Shown here piece after piece: positions 8,873-56,702 of a DNA stretch of 64,000 nt (its first letter is position 1; every line of letters starts with the position of its first letter). A model generated the notes under the pieces. The model was not told the origin of the DNA, ran no database searches, and saw only the letters and a program-made list of their open reading frames with translations. The stretch lies in contig JAGGYW010000020.1 of the NCBI GenBank assembly GCA_021162365.1, positions 9,154-73,153 on the forward strand, written 5' to 3'. This DNA comes from Nanobdellota archaeon. GTDB lineage: Archaea > Nanobdellota > Nanobdellia > CSSed11-243R1. The translations under genes and the position numbers were made by a program.

Positions 8873-9755
8873 TTACAATTGGAGAATCTAACAGCAAAAT
8901 TGTGTGCTCTGTTTGGGCGACCATCCCTCCACTTTCCTCTTTTAACACAGAGAAGTTATGCAGAATTCCATTTCTGGTTAGCTCTCTAAGTCCAAGCTCT
9001 AATCCAAAAGTACCTACTTCTTTTGCTAGCCATCTTTTCCCAAATGGCAATGTTTGATAATTCTCGCTAACAAAGTTTAAGATTTTTCTTGCAGTTTGAC
9101 TTCGTATCGGCTTCGGGTTCTCTAACATGAAAATATCTGATTTCATTGCATCTATTACTCTGCCAACACCATTTGTTGCAAATGGTTCAATTGCTATTGC
9201 CATTCCTTCTTCTAATTTTAAGGTGCTCCTGTTATCAAAATTTGGTATTGTTGGTGGTGTGTGATTTTGGTATTGCTCTAATCCGTGCCCGGAAAGATTA
9301 GCAATTGGAACAAAACCTTTTGACTTTATCGCATCTTCAATCACAGCACCAATTTTCGATATTTCTACCCCAGGCTTTGCAACATCAATTGCTGCCTTAA
9401 CCGCTTCTTCGCTTGCTTTTATTAGCTCATTCCAATTTTTAGTTCCAACCTCTATTGTTATTGCTGTATCAGCAATGTGTCCATCGACATGTACACCAAC
9501 ATCAACTTTTACCAAATCTCCTTTTTTGAATATAGTTTCATCATTAACTGTTGGTGTCCAGTGTGCGGCGATTTCATTTACAGAAAGATTCATGGGCCAC
9601 GCTGGCTTTCCACTAAGTTTAATTATTTCTTTCTCAAGTTTTTCTGCAACATCTAATGTTTTTGCATTTTCTTTTATTATCTCTCTTGCCAATTCTTTTA
9701 TTTTTTTGGCAATCTCACCTGCTTTTTTGTACTTTTCAATTACTTCTTCTTCCAT
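8865..9755 (-). CDS. map: Methionine aminopeptidase type 2 (archaeal MetAP2)
   Basis: Pita-bread metalloprotease motifs (AHWTPT, DLVKVDVGVHVDGHIADTAITI, HG..., metal-binding E/H residues). Start set at the internal Met (MEEEV) to avoid a 44-nt overlap with the polB stop; the ORF-track start at 9800 remains possible. Confidence 0.8.
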   Translation of the reverse strand: MEEEVIEKYKKAGEIAKKIKELAREIIKENAKTLDVAEKLEKEIIKLSGKPAWPMNLSVNEIAAHWTPTVNDETIFKKGDLVKVDVGVHVDGHIADTAITIEVGTKNWNELIKASEEAVKAAIDVAKPGVEISKIGAVIEDAIKSKGFVPIANLSGHGLEQYQNHTPPTIPNFDNRSTLKLEEGMAIAIEPFATNGVGRVIDAMKSDIFMLENPKPIRSQTARKILNFVSENYQTLPFGKRWLAKEVGTFGLELGLRELTRNGILHNFSVLKEESGGMVAQTEHTILLLDSPIVTT

Positions 9756-15319: not shown

Positions 15320-16333
15320 ATGGAATTAATTGATAAGTTTAATCTTGTAAAGCAAAACACAGTTGAGATTTTGACAGAAGATGAATTAAAAGAATTATTG
15401 GAGTCAAAAAAGAATCCAACAGCTTATTGGGGGATTGCCCCCACAGGACCAGTTCATATGGGTTACTTGGCTACGATGGGTAAAATTTTTGACTTTATGA
15501 AAGCAGGAATAAAAACAAAAATATTAATTGCTGATATTCATGCTGCCTTAGATGACTTAAAAGCACCTTGGGGAGAAATAGAAAAAAGAAGAGAGTATGT
15601 TAAAAAATGCCTTGAGCTTGCAATTCCTTGGGAGAAAAAACCAGAATTTGTTTTTGGCTCCGATTATGAGTTATCAAGAGAATACCAGGCAGATGTTTTA
15701 AAGATGGCTTCGATAACAACCGTAAAAAGAGCTATGCGTGCTGCTTCTGAAGTAACCCGTATGAAAAACCCAAAGGTTTCGGAGTTAATTTACCCAATTA
15801 TGCAGTCTCTCGATGAAGAATACCTTGGGGTAGATATACAACTTGGTGGAATAGATCAAAGGCATATTCTTGCTTTTGCAAGGGAGTACCTCCCAAAGCT
15901 TGGATATAAAGCAAGGGTTGAAGTGATGACCCCTTTGATTGTAAGCTTAAAAGGTCCAGGAGTTAAAATGAGTGCATCTATCCCTGAAACAAGTATCAAG
16001 GTTCATGATTCAGAAGAGGCGATTAGGGAAAAAATAAAGAAGGCATATTGCCCAGCAGGTGAGGTGAAGGATAATCCTATTTTGCAGCTTTTCAAATATG
16101 TTGTTTTCCCAATTAGGGGGAGCGTCACAATTGAGCGTCCGGAGAAATTTGGCGGGAACGTCAGTTTTGAATTTTATGAAGATTTAGAGAGGATGTTTAA
16201 GGAAAAAGAATTGCATCCACTTGATGTAAAAGCCGCACTCACGAATGAGTTAGTTGAGATATTTTCTAAGGTTAGAAACTACTTTGAAAAACACAAAGAT
16301 GAATTAAAGGAACTAGGCGAACAGTTTGTATAA
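15320..16333 (+). CDS. tyrS: Tyrosyl-tRNA synthetase, archaeal type
   Basis: HIGH-like motif (PTGPVHMGY) and KMSAS (KMSKS) motif. Strong resemblance to archaeal TyrRS (KKAYCPAG, RPEKFGG, KELHP segments). Confidence 0.8.
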   Translation: MELIDKFNLVKQNTVEILTEDELKELLESKKNPTAYWGIAPTGPVHMGYLATMGKIFDFMKAGIKTKILIADIHAALDDLKAPWGEIEKRREYVKKCLELAIPWEKKPEFVFGSDYELSREYQADVLKMASITTVKRAMRAASEVTRMKNPKVSELIYPIMQSLDEEYLGVDIQLGGIDQRHILAFAREYLPKLGYKARVEVMTPLIVSLKGPGVKMSASIPETSIKVHDSEEAIREKIKKAYCPAGEVKDNPILQLFKYVVFPIRGSVTIERPEKFGGNVSFEFYEDLERMFKEKELHPLDVKAALTNELVEIFSKVRNYFEKHKDELKELGEQFV

Positions 16334-16348
16334 TGTTTTTTAATAAAT

Positions 16349-16400
16349 CTTCTTTCTTTTAGTGCAGGTTTTCTTTCTTTTTAAGAAAGAAAAAGTGCTA
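16349..16400. terminator. T-rich tract plus about 11-bp hairpin (TTTTCTTTCTTT/AAGAAAGAAAAA) between convergent tyrS and the helicase gene; candidate bidirectional terminator; copy A of a repeated ~47-nt element
   Basis: Perfect inverted repeat flanked by oligo-T tracts, located between two gene 3' ends. A near-identical copy lies at 56111-56158. Confidence 0.45.
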
Positions 16401-19166
16401 CCAGAAAATCCTCGTTTCTATGAATTGTTTCTCAGCTTTTATTATATCCTTTATTAAAGCATCTTCATCTTCATGGAACCTATTTAGGATTCTTTTTCCT
16501 ACTTTTGGGCCAATTCCATATCCAGAAAGAACAAATACTGCTTTCCACCCATAGTTAATAAACATCTCTGCTGTTTCTTCAAACTTGGTGAGGAATCTTA
16601 TCTCTTCTTGTTTAAGTTTTTGTTTTGATATATACCTCTTAAGAATATTTTTTGCGAGTTCGCTTTCTTTAAAAGGCACAAACCCAATTAATTTTGCTCC
16701 ACATTTTGGACACTTTAGTTCCTTAGGTAAGTTTCTTACGGAGAAAACACCAATTGACTCGCCACAATTTAGGCATCCAAACCAAAACTTCCTGCTCAAG
16801 AGACGTTCTTTTACTAAGGTATATACTTCTTTTATTTTTCCCTTTGGTTTTATGAGGTGAGTGGTATACCTTAATCCTTCAACGCCAAGCGGAGAAATTT
16901 CATAATTAGGAGAGTTAATTATCTCTATCTCCCCATTTTTTATTTTCTTTAGTATGTCAACTGCATTCTTGACGTCAAGTTTTTCTCTTAGTATTTCTTT
17001 CACAGCTTCTAAGTAGATGAAGGTGTTGTTGTAAACGTTTGTCAGCCGTGATACAACATATTGGGAAAATTCTGCATCTTTGCTTACCACGCCGAAGCGT
17101 TTGGCCACCTGATAAAATCTAAATAAAAACACAGATGTATTCTTTAAGGATTTTATTATTATATCATCTACCCATTCGGGTTGTGTCTCCTTTATCGCTT
17201 CAAATATTTGCTCTTGCCCAATTATTTCTGGCATCTTAAATATCAATCTGTATGCATCATTATGCACTCCTATGGATGTCCCGACTTTGGAGGCAAGCAT
17301 AGCACCAATTGCTTTCGATAATGTTTGATTTACTTTGCTACCAAAGCATGAGTGGACAATCGTATAGTCCTCATACGACTCAATAAACATTTTCTTGCTT
17401 GTTGGGATGACAAATTCTTCTTTTTGTTTTTTAAGCTCGCCCAGCGTAAATTCTTCTCTCAAATCACCCGCAAGCTTTGCAATCTCCATAGGGACAGGTA
17501 TTAACTCCCCTTCCCAACTTGGTATTGCACCTTCACCCTCTTCGCTGGATACTACAATGACTTTGTCCTCTTCAACATCTACTACTCTCCATACCTCCCC
17601 TTTCATTATGAATTGAGCTCCTCTTTTTACATGCTCTGCTACAAATCCTTGATGAAGTATCCCAATCACTTTGTTGAGGTCCGATGCAAACACTTTATAA
17701 TCCTTCTCGTGAGGGATCATGGATAAATTTTCAAAGTAGTAAAGTAGCCCCTTTCTTGTTCGATATATTCCATTCTCCTTTTCCCCAATTAGTCGTATAT
17801 CCTTCATTAGGTCAATCATTGCTTCTATCTCTTTCATTGTTAAATCTCTATAAGGGTATGCTTTTGATACAATTGAAAATATATCCTCTTTTGTAGGTGT
17901 TTTTTCCTCATTTTGGAAATCCATACATATTCCAACAATTTGGTGGGCTAAGACATCAAATGGCTTCTCAGGAATTGTAGGCTCCTCAAGCCACCCTTCT
18001 CTTATCTTCTTCACAATTGCAAGCGACTCTAAGTAATCATCTATTGTATTACAAATAATCTCTCCTTTAGAGATTCTACCAACTCCATGACCGCTTCTTC
18101 CAACCCGTTGAATCAACTTTGTTGCCTGCCTTGGGGATCCATATTGAATAACCAAATCCACACTTCCAATATCTATCCCAAGCTCTAAAGAGGATGTGGA
18201 TATAATTGCTTTTAGTTCACCATTTTTGAATTTTTTTTCAACATCTAATCTAACATCTTTTGAAAGGGAAGAATGATGAACGGCAATTTTGGCATCAGGC
18301 TGCCATGTTTTAAATTTAACTCCCAAAGATTCAGCTGTTTCTCTTGTGTTCACAAAAATAATTGTCGACCTACTTTTCTTTATTAAATCATCCATTTTCC
18401 TCAGGCAGTATGCTATGTTTGGAGTAGTCCCAAGCTCTTTTGCAAGGGAAAAATCTTCTATTGTTGGCTTAGGGTAATCTACGTTGAATTCGTATTTCTT
18501 TTCAGAGCGCGCATCAATGATTTCACATTCTTTATTTGTTAGAAATTTAGCTATCCTCTTTGGGTCTCCTATTGTTGCAGACAGCCCGATTCGTTGAAAC
18601 TCTCGTTTGCATAACAATCTTAGTCTTTCTAATGCAAGTGTAAGCTGCGCTCCTCTCTTGTTTTCGCAGAGCTCATGTATTTCATCAATAATTACATATT
18701 CTACATTTTTTAGAAGCTCTCTAAACCGTTTGCCAATTAGTATCGCCTGAAGAGTTTCTGGCGTAGAAATTAGAACATCCGCCGGGTCAACAAGTTGTTG
18801 TGCTCTTTCCTTTTTTGTGGTGTCCCCATGCCTTAAATCTACTTCCAACCCAATATAACTTGCAAGTTTTATTATTCTATCAAGGATATCCCTATTTAGG
18901 CTTTTTAATGGAGTAATATACAACAATCTTATTCCTTTTTTGTTCTTGTTTTCAATAAGTTTGTTGAATATTGGTAAAATTGCCGCTAAAGTTTTGCCAT
19001 GTCCTGTTGGAGCAATGATTAATATATCCTTCCCCTTTGATATGTTTGGAATGGCTAATTTTTGAGGGAGAGTGCTATCTAAGTAACCTTGTTTTTTAAG
19101 CCATTCTTGTATTTTTGGAGTAAGTACTTCAAACGACATATTACCACTATTTTTTAAAGTTTGCAC
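16398..19166 (-). CDS. lhr: Lhr-type superfamily-2 ATP-dependent helicase with C-terminal zinc ribbon
   Basis: Walker A (APTGHGKT) and DEIHE (DEAH) box. Lhr-like N-terminus (LTPKIQEWLKKQGY...LPQKLAIPNISKGKDILIIAPTGHGKTLAAILP...LYITPLKSLNRD). 922 aa. C-terminal CLNCGESIG...CPKCGAKL. Confidence 0.8.
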   Translation of the reverse strand: MQTLKNSGNMSFEVLTPKIQEWLKKQGYLDSTLPQKLAIPNISKGKDILIIAPTGHGKTLAAILPIFNKLIENKNKKGIRLLYITPLKSLNRDILDRIIKLASYIGLEVDLRHGDTTKKERAQQLVDPADVLISTPETLQAILIGKRFRELLKNVEYVIIDEIHELCENKRGAQLTLALERLRLLCKREFQRIGLSATIGDPKRIAKFLTNKECEIIDARSEKKYEFNVDYPKPTIEDFSLAKELGTTPNIAYCLRKMDDLIKKSRSTIIFVNTRETAESLGVKFKTWQPDAKIAVHHSSLSKDVRLDVEKKFKNGELKAIISTSSLELGIDIGSVDLVIQYGSPRQATKLIQRVGRSGHGVGRISKGEIICNTIDDYLESLAIVKKIREGWLEEPTIPEKPFDVLAHQIVGICMDFQNEEKTPTKEDIFSIVSKAYPYRDLTMKEIEAMIDLMKDIRLIGEKENGIYRTRKGLLYYFENLSMIPHEKDYKVFASDLNKVIGILHQGFVAEHVKRGAQFIMKGEVWRVVDVEEDKVIVVSSEEGEGAIPSWEGELIPVPMEIAKLAGDLREEFTLGELKKQKEEFVIPTSKKMFIESYEDYTIVHSCFGSKVNQTLSKAIGAMLASKVGTSIGVHNDAYRLIFKMPEIIGQEQIFEAIKETQPEWVDDIIIKSLKNTSVFLFRFYQVAKRFGVVSKDAEFSQYVVSRLTNVYNNTFIYLEAVKEILREKLDVKNAVDILKKIKNGEIEIINSPNYEISPLGVEGLRYTTHLIKPKGKIKEVYTLVKERLLSRKFWFGCLNCGESIGVFSVRNLPKELKCPKCGAKLIGFVPFKESELAKNILKRYISKQKLKQEEIRFLTKFEETAEMFINYGWKAVFVLSGYGIGPKVGKRILNRFHEDEDALIKDIIKAEKQFIETRIFW

Positions 19167-53458: not shown

Positions 53459-54880
53459 TTAAATTCTTTTTCTTAACTTTGGACCATCTGGGGTATCCTG
53501 TAACTCCCATCCCATTTCACGAATTTTCTCACGAATTTCATCCGCTTTTCTAAAGTCTTTTTTCTTTCTTGCTTCTTCCCTTTCTTCAACGAGTTTTTTT
53601 ATCTCTTCAGGAACCTCAGCTTTCTCATGTTCTAAAATCCCAAGCACTTTGTCAAACTCAAGCATAACCTCTTTTACCTCTTTAGCATTTTTTTCTCCAA
53701 ATTTGTTATCTGCAATTAATTTATTAATCTCAGACACAAATTCATGAATTGCTGCCATTGCAAGTGGCACATTCAAATCATCATCCATAGCTTCTTCAAA
53801 TTTTTTCTTTGCGTCAGCAATTAGTTCTTTTACTTTCTCATTGTATATCCCTTCATTAATCTCATCAAGTTTTTCCATAAATTCTATCAATCGATTCACT
53901 GTTGTTTCTGCATCTTTCAAACCTTCAAATGTAAAGTTCAGCTGCGAGCGGTAGTGCGCATTCATTAAGAGGTATCTAACTGCCTTTGGTGAATATCCTT
54001 TTGCCAAAACATCACGGAGGGTGTAAAAGTTATTATATCTCTTTGACATCTTCTTTCCTTCTACAAGCACCCACTCATTGTGGAACCAGTATCTAACAAA
54101 CTGCTTTCCGGTTGCTGCCTCGCTTTGTGCAATTTCGTTTTCGTGGTGCGGAAATATTAAATCAACACCCCCAGCATGGATATCTAAAGTTTCTCCAAGG
54201 TATTTCATGCTCATAGCTGAACATTCAATGTGCCAACCTGGGCGCCCGCGAATTGTTTCTTCTTTTCCATCAATGGTAAACTTCACATTCCAGAAAACAT
54301 CTCCATCTTCCGGCGTCCATGCTTTCCAAAGCGCGAAGTCATTAGCTTCTTCTTTCTCATATTCATCTTGTTTTACCCTTGCCCCCACCTTTAACTCGCT
54401 AACTTTTATGCCCGAAAGCTTTCCATATTCTTTGAACTTGGAAACATCATAGTATATTGAGTTATCTTCTCCTTTATAAGCAAAGCCTTTGTCAATTAAG
54501 GTTTGAATTAGTTTTCTCATATCTTCTATGTGTTCAGTTGCTTTTGCATAAACATCTGCGGGCAAAAGATTAAGCTTCTTTGAATCTTCAAAAAATGCTT
54601 TGGTATATCTTTCTGTGAATTCTTTTAGCGAAATCCCTTCTTTTTGACTATCTCTAATGGTTTTGTCATCTACATCTGTTAAGTTCATGACATGCTTTAC
54701 ACTATATCCTTTGTAAAGAAGATACCTTTTGAGTATATCTTGTGCAACATAACTCCTAAAGTTTCCAATATGAGCATAATTGTAAACAGTAGGCCCGCAA
54801 GTATATAATCTCACCAATTTGTCTTCAAGTGGCTTAAATTCTTCCTTTTTTCTTCCAAGAGTGTTAAATAAAACTAACAT
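53459..54880 (-). CDS. cysS: Cysteinyl-tRNA synthetase
   Basis: CGPTVYNYAHIGNFRS (HIGH-type), zinc-binding Cys residues, KMSKR (KMSKS), and anticodon-binding C-terminal domain; 473 aa. Confidence 0.9.
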   Translation of the reverse strand: MLVLFNTLGRKKEEFKPLEDKLVRLYTCGPTVYNYAHIGNFRSYVAQDILKRYLLYKGYSVKHVMNLTDVDDKTIRDSQKEGISLKEFTERYTKAFFEDSKKLNLLPADVYAKATEHIEDMRKLIQTLIDKGFAYKGEDNSIYYDVSKFKEYGKLSGIKVSELKVGARVKQDEYEKEEANDFALWKAWTPEDGDVFWNVKFTIDGKEETIRGRPGWHIECSAMSMKYLGETLDIHAGGVDLIFPHHENEIAQSEAATGKQFVRYWFHNEWVLVEGKKMSKRYNNFYTLRDVLAKGYSPKAVRYLLMNAHYRSQLNFTFEGLKDAETTVNRLIEFMEKLDEINEGIYNEKVKELIADAKKKFEEAMDDDLNVPLAMAAIHEFVSEINKLIADNKFGEKNAKEVKEVMLEFDKVLGILEHEKAEVPEEIKKLVEEREEARKKKDFRKADEIREKIREMGWELQDTPDGPKLRKRI

Positions 54881-55627
54881 TTAATCACCTCCAAAATTAA
54901 AAAGTTGGGTACTAAAATATCTTTCTGCACCATCTGGGAGAACTGTTAGCACAATCCCTTTTAGTTTCTTTGCTACAAAAACATTTGCGCCAGATGAGAC
55001 ACCAACTGCAATTCCTTCCTTTTTTGCTATTTCTCTTGCAGTTTTTATTGCATCTTTGCTGCTTACTTTTACTATTTTGTCAATCTCTATCTTATTAAGT
55101 AATGGTGTTTCTACGTCGTCGCCTATACCTTCTATTTTGTGATTTTTCTCTTTTGGTAGGACGCCAATTATTTTTATCTTAGGAAATTTTTCTTTCAACG
55201 CTTTTCCTATGCCAGAAAGTGTTCCACCAGTTCCAATCCCCGCAACGAAGTAGTCAATTCTGTAGAATACTTTAGCGATTTTCTCCCCCACTTTATAGTG
55301 TGCTATAAAGTTTGCTTCATTTTCAAATTGATTTAAGAATACTCCTTTTTTCTTCTTTGATAGTTTCTTTGCAATTTCTTTTGCTTCTTCCATATTTTTT
55401 AATAGGATTACTTTTGCCCCAAACAACTCAATTAGTTTTTCCCTTTCTTTGCTTGCCCCTTTTTGCATAATGATAGTTACCTTCTTGCCGAGTTTTGCTC
55501 CAATGGCAGCAACAGAAATTCCTGTATTCCCTGTACTTGCTTCAATAATATGTTCCTCTTTAACTCCTTTTAGCATTTCATACACGACTCTATCTTTTAT
55601 GCTTCCTGTCAGATTAAATCTCTCCAC
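54881..55627 (-). CDS. Cysteine synthase (CysK/CysM-like PLP enzyme), compact; non-ATG (GTG) start or N-terminally truncated
   Basis: PLP-lysine motif GSIKDR, asparagine loop TSGNTG-like (STGNTG), glycine loop GTGGT. The motif lysine sits at residue 11 from a GTG start. The in-frame upstream stretch (…LVTKSEVIELRKISKNLFASVERFNLTGSIKDR) still looks CysK-like but has no ATG before a stop 22 codons upstream. Confidence 0.6.
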   Translation of the reverse strand: MERFNLTGSIKDRVVYEMLKGVKEEHIIEASTGNTGISVAAIGAKLGKKVTIIMQKGASKEREKLIELFGAKVILLKNMEEAKEIAKKLSKKKKGVFLNQFENEANFIAHYKVGEKIAKVFYRIDYFVAGIGTGGTLSGIGKALKEKFPKIKIIGVLPKEKNHKIEGIGDDVETPLLNKIEIDKIVKVSSKDAIKTAREIAKKEGIAVGVSSGANVFVAKKLKGIVLTVLPDGAERYFSTQLFNFGGD

Positions 55628-55798
55628 GCTTGCAAATAAGTTTTTAGAAATCTTTCTAAGTTCAATAACTTCCGATTTAGTTACTAAGGCAAACTAAATC
55701 ACCTTTCATTTTACCACCTCCAGAGACAGCTCTAGAAAAATCTTTAGAATTAGTTGCAGAGATAAGCACCTTTCATATTATTCACACTTTGATTGTAG

Positions 55799-55808
55799 TT
55801 TATAAATT
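55799..55808 (+). promoter_or_regulatory. Candidate archaeal TATA box (TTTATAAATT) inside a long intergenic region, not obviously associated with an annotated gene
   Basis: Consensus-like TATA octamer. Region downstream (55835-56110) has locally elevated GC and inverted repeats. See findings. Confidence 0.3.
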
Positions 55809-56110
55809 TTAAGGTTCAGGTGGCCAGCCAAAGAGGGAATTTAGCTTGCGACGCACGACTTTATTTTTGAGCGATATAATTACTGCAATAATCACAATTG
55901 CCAACAATACCCACGGCCAATATACGCTTACTTCGTATGGTAATTCCATGTGGAATTGTAACACTTAAACAATTAAATAAATTTCTTTTTCTTTTGCAAG
56001 CAAAAGCGCCCGGAAAAGTTTCTCTTTGGTGCAGCTTCTTTTCCGCCAGCGCTTTTCTAAAGGGCTGTAAGAAGGTGCTAAGAAAAGCTGTATCAAAAGA
56101 ACCTAAGAGA

Positions 56111-56158
56111 TTTCTTTCTTTAGTGCAGGTTTCTTTCTTTTTAAGAAAGAAAAGTGCG
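56111..56158. repeat. Copy B of the ~47-nt T-tract/hairpin element (TTCTTTCTTTAGTGCAGGTTTCTTTCTTTTTAAGAAAGAAAAGTGC); terminator-like
   Basis: Aligns with 16349-16400 with about 3 single-nt indels. Contains an ~11-bp perfect hairpin. Confidence 0.5.
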
Positions 56159-56295
56159 TGGGGAACTCATTAGCTACCCTGTATCTCATCGGCTTTCGCC
56201 TCGTTGGGTGTTACACTTAATCATCGTTCCCTAATTAAATAAACAACGAATCTTTTATAAGTTTATTACATCTAATAGCTTTTGGGGTGAATTTT

Positions 56296-56421
56296 ATGGT
56301 TTGTAGCGGGTTGCTTGAATATCTGCGAAAAGAGTATGGACTTGTTCCTGTAATCCTTATGCCTCCCTACACTCCTTTAATAGGAGAGCCAGAGGATTAC
56401 AAGCGCAAGGAGAGACCATGA
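56296..56421 (+). CDS. Small upstream ORF (41 aa) translationally coupled to the next gene
   Basis: ATG 6 nt downstream of a GGGGTGA Shine-Dalgarno. Its TGA stop overlaps the ATG of the 56418 gene (ccATGAgg). Its 20-nt leader is identical to that of the 58201 gene. Confidence 0.4.
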   Translation: MVCSGLLEYLRKEYGLVPVILMPPYTPLIGEPEDYKRKERP

Positions 56422-56702
56422 GGAAAAAGGAATTGTGGTATTTTTACTTTGGATTGGCTTCTATTTTTATAGTCATTGGTTTTTTCTGGCTTTTTAGTTA
56501 CTATGCGTCTTTCCCCATTTACATCAAGTCAGCTCTCAACGAAAGCATCCACTCAAATTCTACTACACTTGTTGTTGAAAAACCACCTTTTCCTTGGGTT
56601 GCGCTTTTCCTTGTCATATTTGGCACAGCAACTTTTTTAATCTCTAAATATTTCTATGATAAAGAGGGATATCATGTTAAAAGAACCAGAAAGCATGGAT
56701 GA
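56418..56702 (+). CDS. Small 2-TM membrane protein, hypothetical
   Basis: 94 aa with two hydrophobic helices; SD-like AGGAGAGA upstream. Confidence 0.45.
   Translation: MRKKELWYFYFGLASIFIVIGFFWLFSYYASFPIYIKSALNESIHSNSTTLVVEKPPFPWVALFLVIFGTATFLISKYFYDKEGYHVKRTRKHG

Follow-up and report, generated by a model that had tools for sequence, protein, structure and literature searches.

What does a tightly packed archaeal genome keep in a 0.8-kb interval that appears to hold no gene? The question arises at positions 55628-56417 of a 64,000-nucleotide (nt) stretch of DNA from a Nanobdellota archaeon, referred to here as the window. The genes of the window are packed so closely that the gap is conspicuous, as the first-pass annotation correctly saw. 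Very probably, the interval is a compact minus-strand array composed of a box C/D small RNA (sRNA), a hairpin, a gene for a 46-amino-acid (aa) protein, and the leader of the cysteine synthase gene cysK, with the D guide of the sRNA most likely directed at domain V of 23S ribosomal RNA (rRNA). Alignment with the closest relatives separates conserved from unconserved blocks, and every conserved block reads on the minus strand. The term "gene-free", used for the interval at first, has to be given up. Positions 55809-55949 (minus strand) are a conserved open reading frame (ORF) of 46 aa, and positions 55628-55709 (minus strand) belong to the cysK coding region and its leader. The source of the window is a DPANN archaeon of the Nanoarchaeota type. 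Its CysS is 81-87% identical to the CysS of the metagenome-assembled genomes L002-L005, whose labels read archaeon, Nanobdellati, Micrarchaeota, and Nanoarchaeota. These and the other related loci (L-numbers) were gathered through CysS, a DNA pattern, and homologs of the two proteins encoded here. The related DNA searched for repeats totals 1.2 Mb.

Judged by its sequence, the 71-nt element at 56231-56161 (minus strand) belongs to the box C/D sRNAs, a common class of RNA, and its C'/D' part is built in a slightly unusual way. It was defined by a pattern scan, its homologs, and a covariance model, and it reads GGGAAC-G-AUGAUUA-AGUGUAACACCCA-ACGA-GGCGAAAGCC-G-AUGAGAU-ACAGGGUAGCUA-AUGA-GUUCCC. 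A terminal stem of 6 base pairs (bp) (56231-56226 with 56166-56161) encloses the C box AUGAUUA (56224-56218), the 13-nt D' guide AGUGUAACACCCA (56217-56205), and the D' box ACGA (56204-56201). A 3-bp helix capped by the GNRA tetraloop GAAA (GGCGAAAGCC, 56200-56191) leads to the C' box AUGAGAU (56189-56183), the 12-nt D guide ACAGGGUAGCUA (56182-56171), and the D box AUGA (56170-56167). All four boxes stand in the canonical order, with spacers of 13 and 12 nt and a terminal stem. A loose C/D pattern requiring a terminal stem of at least 4 bp matched once in the 64 kb, where 200 first-order Markov simulations gave an expectation of 0.02; the pattern was composed post hoc, and the figure is a sanity check only. 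The pairing of GGGAAC (56161-56166) with GTTCCC (56226-56231) had been noticed earlier, and this closed structure is real. Its assignment to the leader of the plus-strand small-ORF operon does not hold, since the element lies upstream of the TATA box of that operon and its boxes occur only on the minus strand. An H/ACA sRNA was also considered and rejected: the 3' tail C-ACG-CAC-UUUU contains no ACA, and the internal loops hold C/D-type boxes.

Homologs of the sRNA occur in six other genomes, giving seven sequences with the window. Five of these orthologs (L003, L002, L082, L086, and L087) are syntenic, with a divergent small-ORF operon, the sRNA, the small ORF, and then cysK or cysS. A pattern scan of metagenomes returned three matches, and only that in L082 is a true homolog. 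A covariance model (R1) built from the window and the five syntenic orthologs finds an unseeded seventh copy in L088 with 40.7 bits (E = 6e-9 over ~1 Mb). This copy reads GGGAAC-A-AUGAUGA-UAUGAACACCCU-CUGA-UUU-AUGAUGA-GCAGGGUAGCUU-CCGA-GUUCCC and is canonical throughout, with two spacers of 12 nt. It is not linked to the small ORF: the L088/L096 sRNA lies 3 kb away from that gene, with its own TATA box and a different neighbor. D' and C' are joined by the 3-bp GNRA helix in six of the seven genomes and by a K-loop (UUU) in L088. The guide cores AACACCC and CAGGGUAGCU are common to the linked copies and the unlinked one. Thus, the spacers are conserved between the linked helix form and the unlinked K-loop form, as guide function predicts. 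A weak match to the covariance model (16.8 bits) was also seen in L042 at 9052-9130 (minus strand), with a GGC-AAGA-GCC helix at the equivalent position and poor boxes; it may be a distant relative or noise.

The boxes and helices vary in a coordinated manner. The C box is a full AUGAUGA (7/7) in L002, L082, and L088, and the D box is AUGA in the window and L003, CAGA in L002 and L082, and CCGA in L086, L087, and L088, with its GA invariant. Positions C6 and D1 covary: AUGAUUA occurs with AUGA (U:A), and AUGAUGA or AUGAAGA with CAGA or CCGA (G:C). Positions C'5 and D'2 likewise exchange G:C for A:U. In L086 and L087, G-C replaces two A-U pairs of the terminal stem. The tetraloop (GAAA, GCAA, or GAGA) is of the GNRA type every time. 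Across the six aligned sequences, standard pairs fill 88.9% of the pair cells, and four pairs have changed in both partners; slid controls reach 19-51%.

Expression of the sRNA is predicted from the flanking signals. The TATA-like element CTTATAAAAG at 56252-56261 (minus strand), ~29 nt upstream of the 5' end, would drive its transcription. Six of the loci (the window, L003, L002, L082, L086, and L087) share an invariant YTTATAA at this distance. The unlinked ortholog (L096) has TTTTTAAA 22 nt upstream, so that a TATA-like element lies at 22-29 nt in all seven loci. Because it is palindromic, the element at 56252-56261 might act in the opposite direction as well, for the divergent operon that begins at 56287 on the plus strand. 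A single palindromic TATA (CTTTTATAAG, 56250-56261) stands ~25-30 nt from both putative starts, which suggests a shared bidirectional promoter core. The 3' stem of the sRNA is followed by a T-rich tract or a hairpin. In the window, transcription would stop at a T-tract hairpin, GCAC-UUUUCUUUCUU-AAA-AAGAAAGAAA-CCUGC, located at 56157-56125, 3 nt after the stem. This hairpin folds at -12.4 kcal/mol (z = -4.4), and none of 200 shuffles folds as well. The hairpin is symmetric, with T-tracts on both strands, and therefore plausibly terminates in both directions. A weaker equivalent follows the sRNA in L002.

The C and D boxes with the 6-bp terminal stem form a first kink-turn, and the D' and C' boxes with the 3-bp GNRA-tetraloop helix a second. 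By analogy with all characterized archaeal C/D sRNAs, L7Ae, Nop5, and fibrillarin would assemble on the kink-turns into a ribonucleoprotein. With either spacer as guide, the nucleotide that pairs with the fifth guide position upstream of D or D' would then receive the 2'-O-methyl group. Candidate targets were sought in E. coli 16S and 23S rRNA and in the haloarchaeal rRNA operon of a Halomicrobium plasmid; the 1.2 Mb of related loci contain no rRNA. In L088, the 10 D-guide positions nearest the D box are complementary to Halomicrobium 23S rRNA at the junction of AAGCUACCCUAG and GGAUAACAG. The D guide of the window forms nine consecutive pairs with the same site (E. coli 2434-2445). Directly 3' of this site comes the universal GGGAUAACAG of the peptidyl-transferase ring in 23S domain V. 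Under the fifth-nucleotide rule, the methyl group would fall on the U equivalent to E. coli U2438, in our own numbering taken from the BLAST register. The guide occurs as GUAGCU or GUAACU, and the G/A difference faces the C of archaeal AGCUACC. We take the eukaryotic 25S/28S sequence at this site to be AGUUACC, which would make C and U the natural variants of the position. These matches are suggestive, and the D guide most likely targets domain V beside the peptidyl-transferase center. The region around that center is a conserved methylation hotspot (PMC7994747). Candidate sites in the E. coli 16S and 23S rRNAs all have two or three mismatches, and the best of them, the 16S 790 loop, was rejected. 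A scan of viral contigs for a variant of the predicted 23S target found nothing.

The element resembles known archaeal box C/D sRNAs in most respects. C/D sRNAs are established in Nanoarchaeum, with 26 genes (PMC7994747). With the 26 of N. equitans and the sR RNAs of Pyrococcus, the element shares the C-guide-D'-C'-guide-D order, the 12-13-nt spacers, the kink-turn GA dinucleotides, the short terminal stem, guide cores conserved between orthologs, a TATA promoter of its own, and a likely target in the domain V hotspot. It departs from them in its boxes, in the 3-bp GNRA helix that replaces the 3-9-nt K-loop in six of seven genomes, and in a target inferred from heterologous rRNA only.

Several observations weigh against the assignment or its target. 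The C box AUGAUUA of the window (6/7 of the consensus RUGAUGA) and its D box AUGA are each one base off consensus; these two deviations pair with each other. Archaeal C/D sRNAs are usually 50-60 nt long, with D' and C' joined by the K-loop. At 71 nt, the element is longer because the GNRA-capped helix sits between D' and C'. No Rfam family matches it, which is expected because the archaeal C/D models in Rfam are lineage-specific. Fibrillarin, Nop5, and L7Ae were not located, the fibrillarin motif search having covered the 64-kb window only. The covariation comes from seven sequences of one clade. A 10-mer match in 5.9 kb has a chance probability of ~0.006 per guide, which rises to ~0.05-0.1 once the variants and rRNAs tried are counted, and the match is to haloarchaeal 23S only. 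For the D' guide (target core GGGUGUU), neither E. coli nor Halomicrobium rRNA offers a convincing site; a pairing with the A-loop would point to U2552 but leaves a mismatch beside the target base.

Two other explanations of the RNA signals have to be weighed. The element might be a cis-acting, protein-binding kink-turn RNA, for example one bound by L7Ae, rather than a methylation guide. It could then lie in the 5' untranslated region of the small-ORF/cysK mRNA, or belong to the divergent operon as an antisense or leader element. Its two kink-turn motifs are indeed its best-supported features, in six genomes it immediately precedes the small ORF on the same strand, and no convincing target was found for the D' guide. 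L7Ae-bound kink-turns in archaeal mRNAs are also documented (PMC5539422). However, the ortholog 3 kb from the small ORF, with its own TATA and another neighbor, is awkward for this explanation, and so is the TATA box that separates the element from the small ORF. The plus-strand operon TATA is downstream of the element, which places the element outside that leader. Moreover, conservation is highest in the spacers (AACACCC and CAGGGUA(G/A)CU, both also present in the unlinked copy), as expected of guides. We regard this explanation as improbable, and the box C/D guide sRNA is the preferred identification.

Far less probable still is the ~300-nt stable RNA first proposed for this interval, whether signal recognition particle (SRP) RNA, RNase P RNA, or a novel sRNA, running on the plus strand from a TATA box at 55799-55808 to the hairpin at ~56160. 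A TATA-like element (TTTATAAATT) does stand at 55799-55808, and the T-tract hairpin closes the stretch. The segment 55835-56160 folds with z = -1.95 (plus strand) or -1.63 (minus strand); about 3-6% of shuffles fold as well (3 of 100 on the plus strand), which is not significant. The 91-codon ORF (55898-56173) and the palindromes listed in the first-pass annotation exist. The one at 55991-56006 (CTTTTGC-AA-GCAAAAG, 7-nt arms) folds no better than chance (z = +0.7), and the other (AATTCCA-TG-TGGAATT, at 55942-55957) merely spans the ATG of the small ORF (55949-55947). A GC-richer stretch is there at 56000-56099 (0.46), but the enrichment is modest, and nearby cysS coding sequence reaches 0.47. 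Of the features listed at first, just the T-tract hairpin and the 56161-56231 element stand out in folding statistics. Rfam models, including those for SRP RNA and RNase P RNA, gave no match at the gathering score anywhere in the window, nothing credible at E <= 10 in 55500-56500, where only noise appeared, and nothing credible in five relatives. With ARAGORN, the window yielded neither tRNA nor tmRNA, and a scan for sigma-70 promoters and intrinsic terminators stayed at chance level. Half of the proposed transcript is the conserved protein gene at 55809-55949 on the opposite strand. The remainder (55982-56124) is missing from all six relatives that keep the flanking genes. The proposal fails on the terms that the first-pass annotation itself set for it. 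The idea of an unannotated noncoding RNA was sound, but the strand and the segment were wrong.

The protein-coding part of the array begins with the small ORF, which runs from ATG 55949 to TAA 55809 (minus strand) and encodes a predicted 46-aa single-pass membrane protein, MELPYEVSVYWPWVLLAIVIIAVIISLKNKVVRRKLNSLFGWPPEP. The protein has one hydrophobic helix and an invariant C-terminus, SLFGWPPEP. The gene is kept in L002, L003, L004, L082, L086, L087, and L088 with many synonymous changes, the type of substitution seen in coding sequence. Homologs form just four clusters among 5.8 billion proteins. The 100%-identical cluster is "hypothetical protein J7K73_03605 [Nanoarchaeota archaeon]", so NCBI already lists the protein. 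No Pfam family matches it. A TATA box, TTTATTTAA, lies at 55973-55981, 23 nt upstream of the ATG, and the spacing between the ATG and the conserved motif, (T)TTTTAATT or TTTATTTAATT, does not vary among the window, L003, L002, and L004. Because only 23 nt separate TATA and ATG, the mRNA of the small gene is probably leaderless. The TATA at 55981-55973 would thus drive a leaderless mRNA for a lineage-specific membrane protein. The TATA at 55799-55808 highlighted in the first-pass annotation most plausibly serves the minus strand as well. In that orientation it reads TTTATAAAC (55798-55806) and lies between the stop of the small ORF and the cysK leader. L004 and L088 retain it, whereas L086 and L087, in which the small ORF runs straight up to the leader, lack it.

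The 5' end of cysK poses a separate problem. The ORF at 54881-55627 (minus strand) encodes a PALP-family cysteine synthase (Pfam PALP, E = 7e-54), and the match begins only at profile position 28. The first canonical start in this frame is GTG 55627, which is ATT or ATA in three of five genomes. Codons upstream of 55627 are still conserved at the protein level (FALVTKSEVIELRKISKNLFAS). The frame as a whole extends over 54881-55690 and is open from 55693, and a TAG closes it at 55696-55694 in all five close genomes. Synonymous leucine changes (CTT/TTA/TTG/CTA; TTA/CTA) directly after the TAG indicate that this segment is translated. Differences in the gene body fall on the three codon positions as 176/84/303, which indicates purifying selection. 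In L002 (9720-10000) and L003 (9710-10000), cysK is absent, and cysS comes next after the small ORF. In L082 (250-470, minus strand), the gene is internally deleted to the leader plus the last ~20 codons. Thus, cysK is dispensable in some relatives; it seems to be in the course of loss in part of the clade and under selection in the rest.

Where, then, does translation of cysK begin? A Shine-Dalgarno (SD) sequence, GGAGGTG (55721-55715), precedes an ATG that opens a short ORF, MKGDLVCLSN*, at 55709-55677 (minus strand), in the frame one nucleotide upstream of that of cysK. This SD and ATG (55721-55707) are probably the true translation start of the gene. The arrangement, with SD and ATG in the neighboring frame, is found in 11 of 11 loci of the clade from independent assemblies (the window, L004, L086-L090, and L092-L095), including six sister-clade loci that are ~65% identical. 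Several of the sister-clade genes were called from a GTG start ("VVDSAES..."). The short ORF has the consensus M(N/K)K..LGG(R/D)(L/V)C up to an invariant UGC and stops 0-19 codons later; in L089 and L092, TGA follows the UGC directly. The cysK frame opens 2-26 nt before the UGC, and 6 of the 11 loci have no canonical start in that frame upstream of the conserved residues. Outgroup cysK genes (L016 and L030, 46% identity) have ordinary in-frame ATGs.

The invariant UGC is the sole position open in both frames across all 11 loci. Because the frames overlap only there, any +1 shift that fits all 11 sequences must occur at the cysteine codon. In the window, the candidate site is GUU UGC C (55688-55694, minus strand), with the codon 55691-55689 in the A site and GUU in the P site. 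In 10 of the 11 loci, a GGT-rich, SD-like element (GGUGAU, AGGUGGU, or GGGGUGAU) stops 6 nt short of the UGC; in L095, the distance is 7 nt. The P-site context is GUU U in five loci and CUU U in one, where the tRNA can re-pair at two of three positions in the +1 frame. It is CUC U in the other five, which cannot re-pair. A conceptual +1 product joins MKGDLV to ALVTKSEVIEL... and supplies the 27 residues missing from the PALP profile. The corresponding sister-clade junction joins MNKTKLGGRL to AESILDIVGNTP.

These features are compatible with a cysteine-sensing programmed +1 frameshift that turns on cysK and possibly also the following cysS, a mode of translation to which we give about an even chance of being correct. 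Ribosomes would start at the strong SD and ATG, read 6-10 codons (M-K-x-G-D-L-V), and reach the invariant UGC with the SD-like GGUGAU 6 nt upstream. With plentiful Cys-tRNA(Cys), the UGC would be decoded, and termination would follow within 0-19 codons. If Cys-tRNA(Cys) were scarce, the ribosome would shift by +1 onto GCN (Ala; GCC in the window), and CysK would be made. Four other routes were examined and rejected. Reassignment of TAG conflicts with its use as a stop: TAA, TGA, and TAG terminate 18, 15, and 10 long ORFs of the window, so that all three are in normal use, and TAG also ends the small ORF in relatives. Transcriptional slippage lacks a conserved homopolymer run. A Ty1-like CUU-AGU slip does not fit, the site being CCU-AGC or CAA-AAC in relatives. 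A leader RNA switch finds no support in the fold of the leader (z = +0.2).

Conventional explanations of the cysK leader nevertheless deserve consideration. The ORF behind the SD and ATG might be an ordinary regulatory upstream ORF (uORF), with cysK translated by coupling or reinitiation at the GTG ("VVDSAES") or from a non-canonical start, and no frameshift involved. We consider this possible, though unlikely. An in-frame GTG occurs just inside the uORF in 5 of 11 loci, and cysteine codons ahead of cysteine genes recall bacterial attenuators; L090 even has an additional MVVKLCC*. The GTG has no SD of its own, however, and several uORFs end 8-19 codons past it, which is awkward for reinitiation. 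The six loci lacking a usable in-frame start are likewise difficult to accommodate, and the leader RNA has no significant structure. More doubtful is the possibility that cysK is a decaying pseudogene, or a truncated gene starting at GTG 55627, with the leader as the wreckage of an old 5' end. TGA and TAG stops do cluster near the ancestral start in five genomes, and the losses in L002 and L003 and the internal deletion in L082 fit decay. Furthermore, the 22 codons after the TAG (46/33/52) have a weaker third-position bias than the gene body. Yet the body is intact over ~230 codons in five genomes that are 77-82% identical, with the codon-position bias given above, and the leucine changes show translation right after the TAG. 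GTG 55627 is not kept in three of five genomes, the sister-clade L089 has no canonical start and retains the GNTP motif, and the SD and ATG persist in the neighboring frame at every locus.

The proposed cysK mechanism can be compared with known recoding and attenuation systems. In E. coli, prfB (RF2) is controlled by an autoregulatory +1 shift at AGG GGG UAU CUU UGA C, with a stimulatory SD at short spacing. Like prfB, the cysK leader has a short zero-frame ORF opened by an SD and ATG, the main protein in the +1 frame, an internal SD-like element ending 6 nt before the A-site codon, and a P-site codon NUU followed by U (6 of 11 loci). The feedback logic would also be similar, with the shift rising when the factor that reads the A site is scarce. 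Unlike prfB, the A-site codon is the sense codon UGC and not a stop, so the sensed quantity would be Cys-tRNA(Cys) and not a release factor. The gene encodes a biosynthetic enzyme of an archaeon. The CUC P site of five loci is closer to the Ty3 type, in which the incoming tRNA binds out of frame. The leader also resembles those of trpL and hisL, short SD-led ORFs with codons for the amino acid of the downstream gene, where ribosome pausing at those codons would be the signal. In contrast to these attenuators, the cysK leader has one regulatory codon, overlaps the structural gene in another frame, and shows no terminator or antiterminator structures.

A second cassette lies farther upstream. 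At 55750-55776 (minus strand), uORF1 (MKGAYLCN*) is a leader ORF with a cysteine codon and an apparent duplicate of the cysK start cassette. Versions of MKG(A/D/V)YLC(N/G)* are found in the window, L004, L086, L087, and L088, and a direct repeat links 55697-55713 with 55764-55780. From its sequence, uORF1 looks like a partial tandem duplication. The left ~180 nt of the interval would thus comprise a duplicated leader and the true 5' end of cysK-cysS. Side observations may be added here. uORF1 is followed by a highly conserved CTAATTCTAAAGATTTTTCTAGAG, and its +1 frame is open into the ATG of the second cassette. Its counterparts are MESDYLCWFCI* in L082 and the aforementioned MVVKLCC* of L090 (about 1110-1135). 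The junction of the cysK stop and the cysS start reads GGTGATTAAATGTTAGTTTTG in L082, and the two ORFs abut in the window (54878-54895). This junction resembles the frameshift cassette GGTGATTTAGTTTGCC (55688-55703), either by chance or as a trace of the origin of the cassette.

The T-tract hairpin and the spacer beside it complete the interval. The hairpin had been reported as the second copy (B) of a repeat at about 56111-56158, and this is borne out: copy A lies at 16349-16399 (either strand) between the convergent ORFs 15320-16333 (plus) and 16398-19166 (minus). A pattern search of the window yields these two matches against 0.00 expected. The same 17-nt hairpin motif is inserted in the cysK leaders of L004 (about 1282) and L087 (about 2867). 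Its A/T-only palindromic core, CTTTCTT-AAAAA/TTTTT-AAGAAAG, recurs at unrelated places. This core may be a reusable small terminator module or a miniature mobile palindrome. Between the hairpin and the small gene, the unconserved spacer at 55982-56124 contains two weak, hairpin-like echoes of the terminator motif but gives no support for a gene or RNA, and its folds are not significant. The distance from the sRNA to the small ORF is 210 nt in the window versus 118, 104, 55, 53, and 40 nt in relatives. A repeat or mobile element was considered for the spacer and dismissed: only the hairpin motif recurs, and the related DNA holds no other copy. In L001, an independent ENA assembly of identical sequence, a 10-N scaffold gap and a 3-nt duplication fall at about 625-640, equivalent to window position ~56068. 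Since this gap is inside the spacer, the exact sequence of 55982-56124 may be assembly-sensitive.

What the locus means differs between its two ends. The sRNA adds a conserved, promoter-bearing C/D guide to a DPANN lineage without annotated ones. Its predicted methylation site would be near the peptidyl-transferase center and still maintained in reduced genomes. It further suggests that closely related genomes can differ in the C'/D' motif, which takes the form of a K-loop in some and of a kink-turn helix with a GNRA cap in others. Taken alone, the sRNA is useful for annotation, unsurprising, and of modest interest. The start of cysK could matter more, as a candidate case of recoding that is reproducible across 11 assemblies and directly testable. 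A 2021 review lists one established -1 frameshift in cellular archaea and gives no cellular +1 case (PMC8211752). If the proposal is true, cysK would be the first cellular archaeal gene with a programmed +1 frameshift and would represent a new regulatory logic. It would then also be, to our knowledge, without precedent as a natural gene for amino-acid biosynthesis regulated through a frameshift at the codon for its own amino acid. Gene callers now truncate or mis-start cysK, giving products of 231-248 aa where about 275 would be expected, so that cysteine synthesis may be misjudged in metabolic reconstructions of these organisms.

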